Source: a virus (taxonomy: Duplodnaviria; Heunggongvirae; Uroviricota; Caudoviricetes). Taken from it: a stretch of DNA of 5,046 nucleotides. Below the pieces are notes generated by a model that made no database searches, was not told the DNA's origin, and saw only the letters and a program-made list of their open reading frames with translations. Positions 1 through 5,046 of this stretch are shown piece by piece. The stretch's first letter is position 1. Every line of letters starts with the position of its first letter. The DNA lies in IMG/VR virus record IMGVR_UViG_2563366924_000001, positions 1-5,046 of that record; one strand, given 5' to 3'. A program made the position numbers and the translations under genes.

Positions 1-312
1 GATAAGTTGCTGTGTCCGTTGCTTCAACATCGCATTCTCCGCCGCCAGCGCCGAAAACTTCTCGTGTGCCAACTTAACAGCTGCATCAGCCTGCTTAATT
101 GACTCAGTCGCTTTCTGGTGGTCTTCGGCCAGCCCTGCTAAATCAGCCTCCAGTTCGGCTAGGCGTTCATTTAATGCATCTCGTTCATCCAGTAGAGCCA
201 GCACAACCTGAGGTGTGACTTTCATACGAAATGCCAGCAATTTTTGAGGTGTTGCTACTGTTTCAATTGCTACTGCTGCCTCACGCAGTACCTGATAGTC
301 AATCTTGCTCAC
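1..312 (-). CDS. Partial CDS (N-terminal 104 codons, continues beyond the left edge); coiled-coil, possibly ead/Ea22-like
   Basis: Hand translation of the reverse complement of 1..312 gives an open frame with no stop: (V/M)[103 protein letters not shown]... The GTG start overlaps the upstream stop (GTGA). The DYQ.LREAA and VLALLDE segments recall Ea22-like prophage proteins (memory only). Confidence 0.5.
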   Translation of the reverse strand, partial: MSKIDYQVLREAAVAIETVATPQKLLAFRMKVTPQVVLALLDERDALNERLAELEADLAGLAEDHQKATESIKQADAAVKLAHEKFSALAAENAMLKQRTQQLI

Positions 313-983
313 TGGTTGCCTCCTTTGCGAATCTGTTCCGCCCATTCTTCAAGGGATTTCTCCGCATATTCACCAGATAGGCCATCAATCGGATGCGCTT
401 CATTAGCCAACTCTTCTTTCGCTGACAAAATCATGCGTGTAACGTCGAAAACTTCACGCAAAGACTTATTGATAAATCCGTGATTGAACGCAGCAGCAAG
501 ACGGCTGGCGGTATAGTTAATCCCCTCGTTGCGTGCTTCCGCACGTACTTCAGCCAGGAAAGCGTCGGTAGCTGGGGTTTGGACTTTTTCGTATTGGTAT
601 TCCGTATCGCCAAGGTCGTTAATTATGTTTCTCACCAGGTTGGACTCCACAGCCTTCAGCCCCGCATTCTCAGCAGCCAGCGTATTGCGTTCATGAGCAA
701 GTTTTTCTGTTTCTTCTTGCGCCAGTTTGTTGACCTGTTCAGCTACTTCCATGAGTTCGTTAATCACATTTATCTTTGCAGCCAGCGCCGAGCACTTGGC
801 TTCAAGGTTGTCAATCGTGATTCCTGCAGAACGACACTCCCGCAACGCCGTTTCTAGTTTTGATTCAAGTTCACCGAACTTACGGACAAGATATTCAGCG
901 TTTGTTTCGTTAACTTTTAAATCTCGCGGGATGCATTTACCTTTCAGAAATCCATCCATCTCAATTAGTGTCATTTGTTTCAT
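309..983 (-). CDS. Hypothetical coiled-coil protein, about 224 aa (phage b-region / Ea-type accessory protein)
   Basis: Long ORF with heptad-like A/E/L/K-rich composition in the central 150 residues. Start placed at the ATG at 983 (ATGA coupling with the upstream ORF); the track's start at 1001 is a GTG. Stop TGA 311..309 overlaps the GTG start of the next ORF (GTGA). Confidence 0.65.
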
Positions 984-1144
984 TTCTTCCCACTCCGCCA
1001 CATCGCATTCAGATATTTGTTGTCATTAACAGAACCGAAACTCTTTCTCTTAAGCAATTCCTCTCTCGATGGCATTGGCTTTACGCGTTGGCGAATAATC
1101 ATTTCTGCCGGAAGAATGCCGGGATTGTATGCAAGTCCTCTCAT
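980..1144 (-). CDS. Hypothetical small protein, 54 aa
   Basis: Found by hand (below track cut-off). ATG at 1144 preceded by SD AAGAGGA with a 7-nt spacer. Stop TGA (982..980) overlaps the ATG at 983 of the next gene (ATGA). Translation: [54 protein letters not shown]. Confidence 0.5.
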
Positions 1145-1160
1145 GGTAAATTCCTCTTTG

Positions 1161-1475
1161 TTAATTTATTCGTATGCCTGCTCTTTCTTCATCGAGTTTT
1201 TTTAGCTTGTATCGCATAGCTCTTACTGAATAAATTGAGCGGCAGGTTGCAATTGCTATTTCTTCTGCGGAGAACTTACCGAAAAGTGATACTTCGGCTC
1301 TTGTCCATCGTCTTCCACGAAGTCGGCTAACAATGTCAGCTCCAATCCTTGTTGCTTTCGCCATTACTGCTTTTTCAGTCCTTTCCAGTTTTTCAGCGAT
1401 AACTTCAACTGGCATTGTCGCCGCTACTTCGCGCAAGAAATCGACTTCCCATTTCTCCCATGGAGTCTTTTTCAT
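1161..1475 (-). CDS. Hypothetical 104-aa protein with two helix-turn-helix-like segments; possible DNA-binding protein
   Basis: ATG at 1475, 11 nt after the upstream stop, with a weak SD. Two internally similar segments, each a Trp followed by an acidic helix and an I-A-x-x-L/C-x-R-x-x-x-V-x-x-R type HTH-like pattern ([15 protein letters not shown] and [19 protein letters not shown]). Confidence 0.6.
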
Positions 1476-1486
1476 AGGCGATACCG

Positions 1487-1969
1487 TTATTTGATAAGAA
1501 GTGAAGGTTTCCCAACTTTGAGTTGAGCGCCGGGGATATTTATTCCTGCTTTTAGTTGGTGTTTGATTGCCAGTTTGTCGGCTTTAATTGTCGTTTCAAA
1601 CTCAACGTATTCAGGAGGAAGGGCGCTTGAGTCGATTATTTCTACAATTTCTGACGGTTTGCGGATTGTTACCTGGTGAATACCTGCTCGAATATTTTTC
1701 TTGCCAACCATTTCAAGCGATGACGCTATATATGATTTGATGCTGTCAATCTTATTTTGGATTACTGCGGCTCGCTCATTCAGTGACTTTGCCTCTTCCT
1801 TGAGGCGTTCAGCATAACCAGATTCATTTTTAATGACGGAAAGAAGTTGCTCTATTTTATCGGTAAATTCTCCTTCCATGCCTTCTATTGTGTCAGCAAT
1901 CATCTCTGGCTCTAAATCTGAATCCATCAGCTTTGCGTATTCATTGGCTATTTCATACAGTTTGCTCAC
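1487..1969 (-). CDS. Gp157-like / Gam-like recombination-associated protein, about 160 aa
   Basis: ORF immediately downstream of recT, overlapping it by 17 nt. Start re-placed to the GTG at 1969, which has SD GGAGG and a 6-nt spacer; the track's TTG at 1975 sits directly against the SD. Size, coiled-coil N-terminal half and position next to RecT fit Siphovirus Gp157-type proteins (Pfam PF05565); the family call is from memory only. Confidence 0.7.
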   Translation of the reverse strand: MSKLYEIANEYAKLMDSDLEPEMIADTIEGMEGEFTDKIEQLLSVIKNESGYAERLKEEAKSLNERAAVIQNKIDSIKSYIASSLEMVGKKNIRAGIHQVTIRKPSEIVEIIDSSALPPEYVEFETTIKADKLAIKHQLKAGINIPGAQLKVGKPSLLIK

Positions 1970-2864
1970 TGGCAACCTCCAGTTTCGCTTTGCATTCTGT
2001 GTAAATGGCTTGTACGTTCTGCTGCAATTTCATTCCAGATGTCAGGCGATATGCTTCTGCAAAATATCGCTTCAAATCATCCATGTTTTCTGCCTGAGCC
2101 ATTTCATCACAAAGAAGTTGTGCTTTTTCCGTTATTTCCTGCTGGCGTTTCCTTTCATCTTCGCGGATATCTTCCTCTGATTTGTGCGGCATAACTGGTT
2201 CAGTCCACACACCTTCTTCTTCGTTTAGTACGTGAATAGCACTATCAAGACGTGATGCCTTAGGCCAATACTTGCTTGCACGCTTTACGACCGTCTTTCG
2301 CGCCATCTCATTCCAGTGATTTACCCATGGTCCTTTATCGCTGAATGCCGCCTTGCTTGTTTTCCTTACAGCCTCAATTTCAGCCAGACTCATCTCTTCC
2401 GTTAGATAATCACCTGCTGGCGTCTTAACTGTGCAGTAAACACCAACTATATCGCCACGATCACCGAAGGCGTTGTATTTATGGGTTGGTGCTTTATCAA
2501 GTCCGTTTGACTCATAAGTATCGTTAGCATGAACAAGCTTTGCCTGACCCCATGAGATAACACCAGACTCCATTGCAATATGGAGCAATCCCATATAGCT
2601 GATATCAAGGCAAACCATGCCGTCGCGAGGAACCAGATAAGCCAGTTTGCTGGCCGGGTTTAAGGTGATGCCGATCGCCGCAACATTGATGATAGCGTTC
2701 TGTGCGCTGGTTGGATTTGCCAGTGCTGTTTTAGCCAGGTAATCGTTTTTCTGGAAATACTGAATTGCAAACTGGCTTTCCTTAGCCCATGTCACCGTCT
2801 GTTCAGTCAATGCTCCGCAGAATAACTGCTCCTGCTGTTTAACGAATTCAACGATATTGCTCAT
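1953..2864 (-). CDS. recT: RecT-family single-strand annealing protein (recombinase), 303 aa
   Basis: Contains the RecT-type motif KGPWVNHWNEMARKTVVKRASKYWP (compare Rac RecT NGPWVTHWEEMAKKTAIRRLFKYLP, from memory). SD GGAGA 6 nt before the ATG. Acidic C-terminal extension. Sits in the recombination module of the pL operon. Confidence 0.85.
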   Translation of the reverse strand: MSNIVEFVKQQEQLFCGALTEQTVTWAKESQFAIQYFQKNDYLAKTALANPTSAQNAIINVAAIGITLNPASKLAYLVPRDGMVCLDISYMGLLHIAMESGVISWGQAKLVHANDTYESNGLDKAPTHKYNAFGDRGDIVGVYCTVKTPAGDYLTEEMSLAEIEAVRKTSKAAFSDKGPWVNHWNEMARKTVVKRASKYWPKASRLDSAIHVLNEEEGVWTEPVMPHKSEEDIREDERKRQQEITEKAQLLCDEMAQAENMDDLKRYFAEAYRLTSGMKLQQNVQAIYTECKAKLEVASEQTV

Positions 2865-3172
2865 GCTGCTTCTCCAAAAATGTGTCTGCGTTTAAATATT
2901 GCGAAGGCATATTCAGCCTTAACTCTTTCGGTTATTGCATCCCAGAACCATTCAGCGGCTTTTTCCTGATAGTTACAGTCATCATCTTCCAGCCAGTCGA
3001 TAGCGTCCTTAGTGTGTTCATCTGGTTTATATGAGCGAAGCATTTCGCTTATTGGGTCGCAACGTTTGCAGAGGCGATCAACTTCACTGTTGATTCGTTC
3101 GTAATCTTCATCAGTAAAACTTGCGATAATTTGCGATATTTCACGCTTATCATTCAGAGTCAGAATCATCAT
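2861..3172 (-). CDS. Hypothetical 103-aa acidic protein, translationally coupled to recT; possible host-nuclease inhibitor by position (inference)
   Basis: ATGATG start with SD AGGAGA. Its TGA stop overlaps the recT ATG (ATGA). Occupies the position held by gam (lambda) or abc (P22) directly upstream of the annealing-protein gene. No family recognised. Confidence 0.7.
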   Translation of the reverse strand: MMILTLNDKREISQIIASFTDEDYERINSEVDRLCKRCDPISEMLRSYKPDEHTKDAIDWLEDDDCNYQEKAAEWFWDAITERVKAEYAFAIFKRRHIFGEAA

Positions 3173-3257
3173 CTTTCTCCTGTTCTTTGTGCTGATTGAG
3201 CATTTTGTTCATCTGACGAATGAATTCTTCGTCTGACCATGTATCCGCAATACTCAT
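3144..3257 (-). CDS. Hypothetical small acidic protein, 37 aa
   Basis: Found by hand. ATG at 3257 overlaps the stop of the upstream 54-aa ORF (ATGA). Translation: MSIADTWSDEEFIRQMNKMLNQHKEQEKDDDSDSE. Overlaps the start of the next gene by 29 nt in another frame. Short and low-complexity, so uncertain. Confidence 0.35.
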
Positions 3258-3418
3258 TGCTTAACGACCTTAATCAGTTGAGTTACCTCAATGATGTCCT
3301 CGCATAAATCCGAGTACTGAAATGGGCCGCAGTTGTGAGAGTTAGTGCGTCTGGCGAAAGCCATTCTTCTAAGCTCTTTCAGGGCTTCTTCCAGTTCCTC
3401 GTAAGTTGGTTTTTTCAT
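3254..3418 (-). CDS. Hypothetical small protein, 54 aa (occupies the position of kil in lambda)
   Basis: Below the ORF-track length cut-off and found by hand. ATG at 3418 overlaps the cIII-like stop as ATGA, and its own stop overlaps the next ATG as ATGA. Translation: MKKPTYEELEEALKELRRMAFARRTNSHNCGPFQYSDLCEDIIEVTQLIKVVKQ. Confidence 0.5.
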   Translation of the reverse strand: MKKPTYEELEEALKELRRMAFARRTNSHNCGPFQYSDLCEDIIEVTQLIKVVKQ

Positions 3419-3585
3419 GGCTGTACCTTTTGATTCAGAAACTCAACAAGACGATCCAGCAAGCTCTTAACGCGAGGTTGTTTAAAGTCTGCTCCGGTTA
3501 AAATATTTTTTCGTGAATGCTGTACCGATAAAATCGGGTTGAAAGGGCGAACCGATGCCGCCCCTGCAATAGCGAACTGTTGCAT
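3415..3585 (-). CDS. cIII: cIII-like small regulatory protein (FtsH/HflB protease inhibitor family), 56 aa
   Basis: ATG at 3585 preceded by SD AGGAG with a 6-nt spacer. N-terminus MQQFAIAG resembles lambda cIII MQYAIAG, and ...SLLDRLVEFLNQ resembles the cIII central helix (recalled, not searched). Position after tL and before the recombination genes matches lambda. The 91-aa track ORF is this gene with a spurious TTG-initiated extension that runs through the terminator. Confidence 0.55.
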   Translation of the reverse strand: MQQFAIAGAASVRPFNPILSVQHSRKNILTGADFKQPRVKSLLDRLVEFLNQKVQP

Positions 3586-3650
3586 AGGATGCTCCTTCTG
3601 TTTGATTGCATAACGAAAACGCCTCGAGTGAAGCGTTATTGGTATGCATA

Positions 3651-3675
3651 TAAAAAAGCCCTCACATCGGAGGGC
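3651..3675 (-). terminator. Rho-independent terminator on the minus strand (tL-like), between the accessory cassette and the cIII-like gene
   Basis: Minus-strand RNA: GCCCUC-CGAUGU-GAGGGC followed by UUUUUUA. That is a 6-bp GC-rich stem (plus 3658-3663 / 3670-3675), a 6-nt loop and a 6-U tail (complement of plus 3652-3657). Confidence 0.6.
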
Positions 3676-3737
3676 AAAGAAGATTTCCAATAATCAGAAC
3701 AAGTCGGCTCCTGTTTAGTTACGAGCGACATTGCTCC

Positions 3738-3765
3738 GTGTATTCACTCGTTGGAATGAATACAC
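3738..3765 (-). other. Perfect 9-bp inverted repeat (GTGTATTCA / TGAATACAC) with 10-nt spacer; candidate RNA hairpin or protein-binding site
   Basis: Read directly: plus 3738-3746 GTGTATTCA, spacer ctcgttggaa, 3757-3765 TGAATACAC. Sits 15 nt downstream of the 156-aa gene stop. No U-tract follows on either strand. Confidence 0.4.
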
Positions 3766-3779
3766 AGTGCTTATTCGTA

Positions 3780-4250
3780 CTAATAAAATACCCAATTTTC
3801 TGTTTCTTGGTTGTGTCCAAAGTTATATTCAATATCTGGTGTTGATGTATCAATATTCTTCATCCCATCAACAAGAGTTGATACAACAGCCAAATCTTGT
3901 TTGATTCTCATTAAATGGTACTTCTTCCGGCGCAATAAACTTTCAATGGCAAGTTTCTTCGTTGGGAATGCAAAAGATCTTTCTGCATTTTTTGCTACTT
4001 TCTTAATTGCATATCTATTTCTCCTTTGTTTCCATTCCTGTAACCACTGATTTGGTGCTGGTTTAAAATTAACAATCCAATGCGCAGGAACCAACCATGC
4101 ATAATGCTCTGTCTGATGAAAAGCTATATATTGAAGTGCGAATATTTTTATCCCATCTTCTTCAACTGTCGCCTGGAATCTCCAGAAAACAGGCATTCCA
4201 TCATGTTCAGTTTCTGATTCAGGAAAAGGTACGCTCCATGATTTTGTCAT
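3780..4250 (-). CDS. Hypothetical 156-aa protein, Trp-rich N-terminal half and strongly basic central segment; function unknown (accessory/moron gene)
   Basis: Longest ORF in this segment, co-oriented with the operon. SD GAGGTGAGAT before the ATG at 4250. Seven Trp residues, and a K/R-rich stretch (WKQRRNRYAIKKVAKNAERSFAFPTKKLAIESLLRRKKYHLMRIKQ). Hand counts on sampled 60-nt lines give about 28-40% GC here versus 45-48% in flanking phage genes. I recognise no family. Confidence 0.7.
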   Translation of the reverse strand: MTKSWSVPFPESETEHDGMPVFWRFQATVEEDGIKIFALQYIAFHQTEHYAWLVPAHWIVNFKPAPNQWLQEWKQRRNRYAIKKVAKNAERSFAFPTKKLAIESLLRRKKYHLMRIKQDLAVVSTLVDGMKNIDTSTPDIEYNFGHNQETENWVFY

Positions 4251-4330
4251 ATCTCACCTCAAATAATTCAGTGCAGTGTTTATTCTGTTGTTTATGCCAA
4301 AAGAAGGCCGACTATGCGGCATAATTATTT

Positions 4331-4519
4331 TTAACTATCATCAATACATGGCACTTTATTCCAGTCGATATCGTTTTTATTGTCGTCCCACATGTCTTTG
4401 TTTTTGTATTTCTCGCTACATCCTAGGCAAATGTTGTATGGCCTACCGATAAGGTTTAACGAAATACGTTGCATTTCATTTGATTCAAACATGTATCCAC
4501 AGAACTGACATTTATGCAT
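4331..4519 (-). CDS. Small zinc-ribbon protein, 62 aa, acidic C-terminal tail; function unknown (accessory/moron gene)
   Basis: ORF with CxxC (C4,C7) and CxxC (C31,C34) separated by 23 residues. SD GAGG about 8 nt upstream of the ATG. Lies in a low-GC segment immediately downstream of N. Confidence 0.6.
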   Translation of the reverse strand: MHKCQFCGYMFESNEMQRISLNLIGRPYNICLGCSEKYKNKDMWDDNKNDIDWNKVPCIDDS

Positions 4520-4578
4520 ATCTCACCCCTCATACAGTAGCTTACTGCCTAATTTCATTTTCTGGCGACCAACACAAG

Positions 4579-4962
4579 TCACCTCGCCGTCAGTTGTTTT
4601 GATTTCCGGTAGCCTGCCGCGTAAATGGCTACGTTTGGAAGACATACACCAGTTTCTGGTTGCTTATGTCCAAACTCATTCGCGTACACAATGGCCGCTC
4701 GCTCCAGATTGCGTCTGTATTCTTTCTGTTGCCAGATCACGTCCTGTGCCATGAACTTAATTGGCTTAGCGTCTTCTATGCGCTCAGGCGTTTCGTGAGT
4801 ACCTTTAGCCTGAATCTGCGCTCTGCTTAGAGTAGGGCGGTGTAATACTTCTGAACTTATTGCTTCTTCGCGGGCCAGTACGCCGTTAGCTAATGCCTTT
4901 GCCTTTAAACGCTCACGACGACGAGAACGTGAATTGCCTTTGAACTGAGTTCTGCGTGTCAT
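4579..4962 (-). CDS. N: N-type transcription antitermination protein (P22 gene 24 / lambda N family), 127 aa
   Basis: N-terminal arginine-rich motif (SRSRRRERLKAKALA) of the kind that binds boxB RNA in N proteins. C-terminus ...LPNVAIYAAGYRKSKQLTAR closely resembles my recollection of the P22 gp24 C-terminus. Strong SD (AGGAGG, 5-nt spacer) before the ATG at 4962. It is the first gene of a leftward operon, followed by a terminator and a cIII-like gene. Confidence 0.8.
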   Translation of the reverse strand: MTRRTQFKGNSRSRRRERLKAKALANGVLAREEAISSEVLHRPTLSRAQIQAKGTHETPERIEDAKPIKFMAQDVIWQQKEYRRNLERAAIVYANEFGHKQPETGVCLPNVAIYAAGYRKSKQLTAR

Positions 4963-4995
4963 ATAGACCTCCTGATGAACTTTGGTGGTGTGGTG

Positions 4996-5015
4996 GCTGG
5001 TAGTCTAGCTCCAGC
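4996..5015 (-). promoter_or_regulatory. Candidate hairpin in the N leader (possible nutL-related structure)
   Basis: GCTGG / CCAGC 5-bp stem with a 10-nt loop, 30-50 nt upstream of the N start. The loop is longer than a canonical boxB and no boxA-like CGCTCTT(T)A was found in the 84 nt available, so this is weak. Confidence 0.2.
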
Positions 5016-5046
5016 TTGTTGAGTCTCATTCGGAGGGGTATAACCG

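Follow-up and report, generated by a model that had tools for sequence, protein, structure and literature searches.

What a perfect inverted repeat just behind the last gene of a phage cassette might do, and whether it acts as DNA or as RNA, is the question raised by the stretch of 5,046 nucleotides analysed here (positions 1 to 5,046 of IMG/VR virus record IMGVR_UViG_2563366924_000001, hereafter the window). The window represents a lambdoid early-left (pL) operon with all its real genes on the minus strand: N (4579-4962, Pfam N_peptide), a gene of 62 aa (4331-4519, phrog_19863), a gene of 156 aa and unknown function (3780-4250, phrog_1636) whose length and position are those of HK97 gp45, a cIII-like gene downstream of the latter and, after further genes, a RecT-like recombinase (1953-2864). 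The repeat consists of GTGTATTCA (3738-3746) and TGAATACAC (3757-3765) separated by a spacer of 10 nt, exactly as a previous sequence-only reading of the window had described it. It lies 14 nt from the stop codon TAG (3782-3780) of the 156-aa ORF, whose transcript runs into it, and 62 nt before the stem (3675-3658) of an intrinsic terminator (3652-3675, minus strand; GCCCUC-CGAUGU-GAGGGC then UUUUUU), which is the equivalent of lambda tL2a; the distances given by that reading, 15 nt and about 65 nt, were close and needed only this small correction.

The repeat and its extended fold

No other perfect inverted repeat of at least 9 bp with a loop of 3-12 nt is present anywhere in the window. Dinucleotide-shuffled windows contained 0.19 such repeats on average, and since 15% of the shuffles contained at least one, the 9-bp repeat alone proves little and is only weakly non-random. 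On the minus strand, which is the pL-sense strand, the core (3738-3765) reads GUGUAUUCA-UUCCAACGAG-UGAAUACAC as RNA, and two C·A mismatches turn into G·U pairs, extending the helix to 12 bp closed by a CAAC tetraloop. With the G·U pairs, a hairpin of 14-16 bp is obtained over positions 3733-3770 (14 contiguous pairs plus a 2-bp lower stem, approximately 17 layers), in which the lower stem (G-C, C-G, A×A, C-G and U·G) is followed by the 9-bp core, the apical pairs U·G, U-A and C-G, and the tetraloop. The 9-bp stem of the sequence-only reading thus stands as the core, but the helix on the transcribed strand reaches well past it. The free-energy estimate proposed in that reading was obtained for both strands: for segments of 28 and 48 nt, the pL-sense strand folds at -14.2 and -21.7 kcal/mol, respectively, and the opposite (plus) strand at -11.6 and -15.8 kcal/mol, and the z-scores for minus-strand folding of the 28-48 nt segments were -7.1 and -7.6, the latter for the fold of -21.7 kcal/mol. 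Together with the 95-100% conservation and the compensatory covariation described below, these folding z-scores show that the repeat is real.

Several known types of element were considered and rejected. Like intrinsic terminators such as tL2a, the hairpin is a stem-loop in a 3' untranslated region; unlike them, it is AT-rich (33% G+C in the core) and is followed directly at the 3' side by GGAGCAAUGUCG, without a U-tract. A terminator scan called only 3675-3658 and 3637-3618 and passed over the hairpin, in agreement with the previous statement that it is not a typical terminator. The second of these calls, AACGCUUCACUCGAGGCGUU followed by UUCGUU (3618-3637, minus strand), is a terminator-like hairpin just upstream of the cIII-like gene, and the same sequence is present in lambda (locus L001, 493-512). 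A retroregulation-type element, as had also been suggested, does not fit either: at least 58 nt separate the hairpin in its full extent (3733-3770) from the terminator stem (3675-3658) downstream, so that the hairpin, unlike lambda sib, would form in terminated and read-through transcripts alike, with no dependence on read-through. A nut site (boxA/boxB) was discarded because boxB has a 5-bp stem and a GNRA-like pentaloop, whereas the present stem has 12-14 bp and a variable tetraloop, and its allele is shared by lambda, 21, HK97 and 933W despite their different N specificities. As with integron attC sites, exchangeable promoterless cassettes have at their 3' end, in a conserved frame, a palindrome of variable sequence and conserved structure. 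However, attC occurs once per cassette and this hairpin once per locus, with no second copy after the 62-aa gene; moreover, its frame is GCAC...GAGC and not RYYYAAC/GTTRRRY, there are no R''/R' core sites and no IntI integrase, and the strand bias points to RNA.

The upstream border of the hairpin has features of its own. Directly 5' of it lies a conserved linker (3771-3779, minus strand, UACGAAUAA, consensus CGAAUAA), which carries an in-frame TAA and is common to many unrelated cassettes. Many of these end ...NNC GAA TAA GCAC, with their stop codon within the linker before the hairpin, and the 156-aa ORF of the window has its TAG followed by in-frame TAC GAA TAA (Y-E-stop), which gives the impression that an older C-terminus was truncated. 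The 156-aa cassette is flanked by a 12-nt pair of direct repeats, CAGTGCTTATTC (3765-3776), which overlaps the foot of the hairpin, and CAGTGTTTATTC (4274-4285). Upstream of the second copy a sequence similar to the lambda ral 3'UTR, CAGTGTTTATTCTGTTGTTTATGCC, can be observed; this arrangement, with the gp45 cassette between the hairpin and a ral-type 3'UTR, was seen in only one of the 331 loci sampled.

The neighbouring sRNA PreS and the distribution of the hairpin

Phage lambda carries an identical hairpin between ral and ea10, at 34013-34040, which lies approximately 60 nt upstream of another hairpin, GCCCTCACACTGGAGGGC. The same interval encodes LPR1, renamed PreS, an Hfq-dependent sRNA located between ea10 and ral whose 3' end is the terminator tL2a (bioRxiv 10.1101/2024.10.31.621285). 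As reported in that preprint, PreS appears in northern blots as species of approximately 88 and 68 nt, is expressed from 10 min post-induction in the lytic cycle only and is silent in lysogens, and it activates dnaN and represses alaS, boosting host DnaN and phage replication. The window contains a homologue at 3651-3736 (minus strand), which matches lambda 33924-34011 over the seed and the tL2a terminator and measures 86-88 nt from the hairpin to tL2a; its seed is identical to that of lambda, and the differences are confined to the terminator loop and tail. With the same locus, an identical seed, a tL2a-type terminator and an identical 5' hairpin, the stretch between hairpin and terminator is, judged by its sequence, an intact homologue of PreS, a known sRNA gene. 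The sequence-only reading had taken 3651-3736 as plain spacer.

The hairpin itself is adjacent to this gene and not a member of it: 3651-3736 has the properties of the PreS/LPR1 gene, and the core repeat (3738-3765) falls just outside the published boundaries. In Table S5 of the preprint (bioRxiv 10.1101/2024.10.31.621285), the cloning and in-vitro-transcription primers make PreS begin with GAGCAATGTCGCTCGTAACT / GAGCAATGTCGCTCG. The published 5' end (GAGCAAUG / GAGCAAUGUCGCUCGUAAC) corresponds to position 3736 of the window on the minus strand, 2 nt past the core repeat and within the lower stem, where the +1 is taken from the authors' cloning primers and the ~88-nt band and not from RACE. 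The homology arm of primer P969, used for the "full lpr1 deletion" (same preprint), ends ...GTGAATACACG / ...CACTGTGTATTCATTCCAACGAGTGAATACACG, so that the hairpin was retained in this deletion. It therefore lies outside the sRNA as defined and cloned by the authors, was neither described nor deleted there, and the terms "hairpin", "RNase E" and "RNase III" are absent from the text of the preprint.

The Rfam 15 scan of the window, lambda, HK97 and the loci with the type B sRNA described below gave no match at or close to a gathering threshold, either at the hairpin or at PreS, the only hit being the cIII thermoregulator in lambda. In the searchable literature we found nothing on how the PreS 5' end is made; neither that literature, which did not cover the older tL2 mapping papers, nor Rfam 15 yielded a description of the hairpin. 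Older mapping of tL2 and of RNase III sites is reportedly contained in Hyman and Honigman 1986 (J Mol Biol) and Luk and Szybalski 1983. The sequence of the hairpin has been public since the lambda genome, PreS is now known, and the kind of element, a structure-only stem-loop at an RNA boundary, is ordinary. A promoter of its own for PreS was considered and rejected, as the promoter scan of the minus strand found no sigma-70-like site ahead of PreS and the room for -10 and -35 elements is taken up by the variable stem.

IMG/VR loci were fetched with anchors away from the window hairpin, namely the terminator-proximal part of PreS, the PreS 5' domain and a variant hairpin. The block 3655-3770 is 95-100% identical in approximately 327 phage records, including lambda, 434, 21, HK97, HK620, 933W/Stx and Salmonella P22-like phages, and it is present in 2234 of 5426 complete E. 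coli genomes (41%), where it is never annotated as an RNA gene. The hairpin occupies its slot in 120 of the 121 loci anchored in the terminator-proximal part of PreS, the exception being an IS insertion within PreS. BLAST homology to most phages stops at 3770/3771, which is the 5' foot of the extended stem, and at least eight different sequences are found upstream of this break. The position of the break, on the cassette side of the hairpin, indicates that the hairpin descends together with the sRNA module and is not tied to any single upstream gene.

Four hairpin-less loci that matched the fuzzy anchor (L256, L286, L314 and L328) were chance matches in coding sequence. The PreS seed anchor applied to genome contigs (L123-L155) retrieved contigs labelled Pseudomonas, Shewanella, Bacteroides, Bradyrhizobium, archaeal MAGs and others and added no diversity; most of these matches look like lambda DNA contamination of unrelated assemblies and not real prophages, many of the contigs being short or of low coverage, at ~48.5 kb. 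The sRNA svsR (PMC12803456), which a prophage encodes at the 3' end of cI, is unrelated.

Across approximately 330 loci, at least five unrelated stem sequences were found in one fixed frame, CGAAUAA-GCAC-[U/C]-stem-loop-stem-[G/U/C]-GAGC-AAU(G/A)UCGCUCGUAAC, with the lower stem GCAC...GAGC conserved. In pL-sense RNA, these stems are T1 (GUGUAUUCA; window, lambda and HK97), T2 (UAUAGCAGA, with a compensated sub-variant UAUAGCUGA), T3 (UAAUGCGGA), T4 (UAAUGACCA) and T5 (UUAUCGACU). The T2-T5 stems mostly accompany a divergent PreS-like sRNA, here called type B, of approximately 100 nt in the same position (L158, Salmonella phage UPF_BP1, ~1500-1600; also L160, L249, L254 and L263); the phages that have it are P22-like and others. 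The seed region of type B (…GGUUAAUCGAAAAAUCAUCCCUUGAUG…) is a different one, as is its terminator (GCCGCUC…GGGCGGC), but the 20-nt 5' domain GAGCAAUAUCGCUCGUAACC and the hairpin slot are kept; for this sRNA we found no description and no Rfam family.

Two further loci depart from the common arrangement. In an E. coli VL40 prophage (L346, 2501-2541), the hairpin and GAGCAAT are kept, the rest of PreS, the terminator and ea10 are lost, and the hairpin is fused to the cIII leader / ribosome-binding site; the hairpin can thus persist without the sRNA. In phage HK022 (L157, 1606-2662), IS903 is inserted inside the hairpin and homology to the window ends at 3759, in the right arm, so that this phage has PreS but a disrupted hairpin.

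On balance, we favour the view that the hairpin serves the PreS module as an RNA boundary or processing element on the pL transcript. The stem-loop would form on the leftward early transcript between the last upstream gene (the 156-aa gene here, ral in lambda) and PreS, and its shape, not its sequence, would be what acts. Since PreS lacks a conserved promoter of its own and is produced only with pL active, it must be cut from the long pL transcript; a species of ~88 nt starting at the 3' foot of the hairpin suggests that the hairpin defines or guides this cleavage. The RNA hairpin on the cassette transcript put forward by the sequence-only reading is in line with this, and a role at an RNA end or in processing, also named there, is plausible given the PreS 5' end at the hairpin foot; its other two suggestions, an operator and a retroregulation-type element, are not retained.

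A different role on the same transcript, and the one among the alternatives that survives best, would be that of a pure 3' stabiliser of the upstream ral or cassette mRNA, which would block PNPase and RNase II after an endonucleolytic cleavage further downstream and take no part in making PreS. A stable hairpin lies 0-47 nt past the upstream stop codon in all contexts, the VL40 prophage retains it without PreS, and the T2 allele is found with several different cassettes, all of which would suit such a function. We nevertheless regard it as unlikely, because the mosaic break is on the cassette side and the hairpin is inherited with PreS and no particular gene, because T1 with another PreS-side flank gave 0 matches in IMG/VR, and because the conserved lower stem takes in the first PreS nucleotides. 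If the hairpin were merely a 3' cap for the upstream mRNA, it would be an ordinary element.

Covariation and strand preference

The conservation of pairing, which the sequence-only reading had proposed looking for in related phages, was found together with compensatory changes. The 37 distinct variants were aligned with MAFFT (alignment A1) over a helix of 16 pairs. In this alignment 94% of the cells are paired, compared with 70% in column shuffles (none of 500 reached the observed value) and 23-50% with slid partners; both sides have changed in 9 of the 16 pairs, and the covariation score is 0.56 vs 0.15. Without being given a structure, RNAalifold recovered from the 37 variants exactly the 9 core pairs and, in addition, an invariant small hairpin, GAGC/GCUC, where PreS begins at its 5' end. 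The 3' strand of the lower stem, GAGC, can pair instead with GCUC in PreS, and it is this alternative that RNAalifold favours. The letters of the tetraloop vary freely (CAAC, CAGU, CGGU, CGAU, CAAU, UACG and others) with the closing pairs kept, and the spacing of the arms ranges from 8 to 10 nt. T2, T3 and T4 each differ from their neighbours by three compensated pairs, a pattern that would be expected of stepwise compensatory evolution and that indicates selection for pairing. Pairing kept while the stem sequence changes wholly points to a selected RNA structure.

Covariation alone cannot distinguish an RNA hairpin from a DNA palindrome. The two strands were therefore compared: G·U pairs occupy 68 cells on the pL-sense strand as opposed to 2 on the other strand, pairing amounts to 94.0% and 82.6%, respectively, and the pL-sense fold is the better one for each of the six stem alleles. 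The G·U bias sits at 3-4 alignment positions and thus represents a handful of independent events, and the singletons L025, L062 and L306 show C×A mismatches on the pL-sense strand. The strand bias consequently provides good, if not conclusive, evidence that the structure forms in RNA, on the pL transcript.

If the palindrome acted in DNA, it could be a recombination or mosaic joint (a cruciform or a short-homology hot spot for cassette swaps) or the operator of a dimeric protein, the latter being another proposal of the sequence-only reading. That the homology between phages breaks exactly at its foot, that the 12-nt direct repeats around the 156-aa cassette overlap this foot and that IS903 has entered the hairpin in HK022 would all be in keeping with a joint. 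In addition, two records (L060 and L154, an IMG/VR contig and a genome_contigs record) each show a pair of simultaneous changes by which one arm of the lower stem is copied onto the other (GCTCC...GGAGC and GCACT...AGTGC) and the palindrome is perfected; these look like quasi-palindrome template-switch mutations, of which such a two-change perfection is a signature in DNA. Against this stand the one-sided G·U pairs and the better folding of every allele on the transcribed strand, and the stepwise compensation in T2, T3 and T4, which reflects selection for pairing that a recombination joint does not need. An operator is further opposed by the spacing of 8-10 nt with free tetraloop letters, and by the fact that one stem allele is common to lambda, 21, 434, HK97 and 933W, phages that differ in immunity type and repressor as well as in N type and N protein; a non-exhaustive look gave no co-varying cognate protein candidate. 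The dyad operator was accordingly dropped, and a DNA-level role of either kind appears distinctly improbable. Least probable is a functionless palindrome hitch-hiking beside a strongly conserved sRNA: a perfect 9-bp repeat does arise by chance in the shuffled windows at the frequency given above, and most copies are identical since the whole block is 95-100% conserved, but five unrelated stems each keep 8-9 perfect pairs and the same lower-stem architecture, and loops vary where stems do not.

Possible processing at the hairpin and release of PreS

With the hairpin as a boundary or processing element of the PreS module, cleavage at the hairpin, the nuclease involved and any change in how stable PreS or the upstream mRNA is are inferences, and two routes can be envisaged. 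In the first, RNase III, an enzyme that recognises the shape of a helix and not its sequence, would act on the helix of 14-16 bp with its conserved internal loops in the lower stem; the cut could fall in this conserved lower stem, where G-C, C-G, A×A and C-G are followed by a mismatch or U·G, at 12-13 bp from the loop. In the second, an endonuclease specific for single strands, e.g. RNase E, would cut in the junction of 1-2 nt between the hairpin and the GAGC/GCUC hairpin of PreS. RNase III is a plausible candidate, for which the helix is short; the junction, ACACGG|GAGC, is not AU-rich and therefore fits the preference of RNase E poorly. Were only the 3' side cut, the ral or gp45 mRNA would keep the hairpin as a 3' cap that protects it from exonucleases. 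The hairpin would also insulate the folding of PreS from whichever gene precedes it, in keeping with the place of the hairpin at the mosaic joint of cassette exchange.

The enterobacterial sRNAs CpxQ and SroC are derived from 3'UTRs and released by RNase E cuts in AU-rich single-stranded sites. PreS resembles them in binding Hfq, in lying at the end of a transcription unit, in sharing the terminator of the mRNA, in having no promoter of its own and in having a shorter processed form (68 nt); it differs from them in that a hairpin of conserved structure abuts its 5' end and in that the junction is G/C-rich. Phages also possess RNase III processing hairpins, such as T7 R1.1 and the lambda N-leader and sib sites. 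The present hairpin shares with these its location on a polycistronic early transcript, a helix conserved in structure only, and internal 1×1 loops in the lower stem, which are found ~12-13 bp from the loop, at the place of the PreS 5' end. Classical RNase III substrates have a helix of ~20-22 bp, and the helix here is shorter (~17 layers); its cleavage is hypothetical and, unlike sib, it lies wholly upstream of the terminator.

Type B shares with PreS only the hairpin slot and the 20-nt 5' domain, which suggests a modular design of a processing domain plus an exchangeable seed. More speculatively, the hairpin and the invariant 20-nt 5' domain of PreS (GAGCAAU[G/A]UCGCUCGUAAC, removed in the mature 68-nt form) might together constitute a dedicated "sRNA-release cassette", a proposal that we put forward only tentatively. 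In such a cassette, a nuclease site specified by structure (probably for RNase III, followed by an RNase E cut stimulated by the 5'-monophosphate) would free PreS-like sRNAs with different seeds from the pL polycistron, would cap or uncap the upstream mRNA and would serve as a fixed joint for the exchange of accessory genes.

PreS was described only in 2024, and the hairpin exactly at its 5' edge is the obvious candidate for the determinant of its excision from the pL transcript. The hairpin is present in lambda, HK97, 21, 434, Stx and P22-like phages, and it offers a handle for experiments. With its place beside PreS, its wide distribution and its clean covariation, it is a modest but worthwhile lead; if the release cassette were true, it would be a widespread, undescribed post-transcriptional element, present in approximately 40% of E. 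coli genomes and in lambda.
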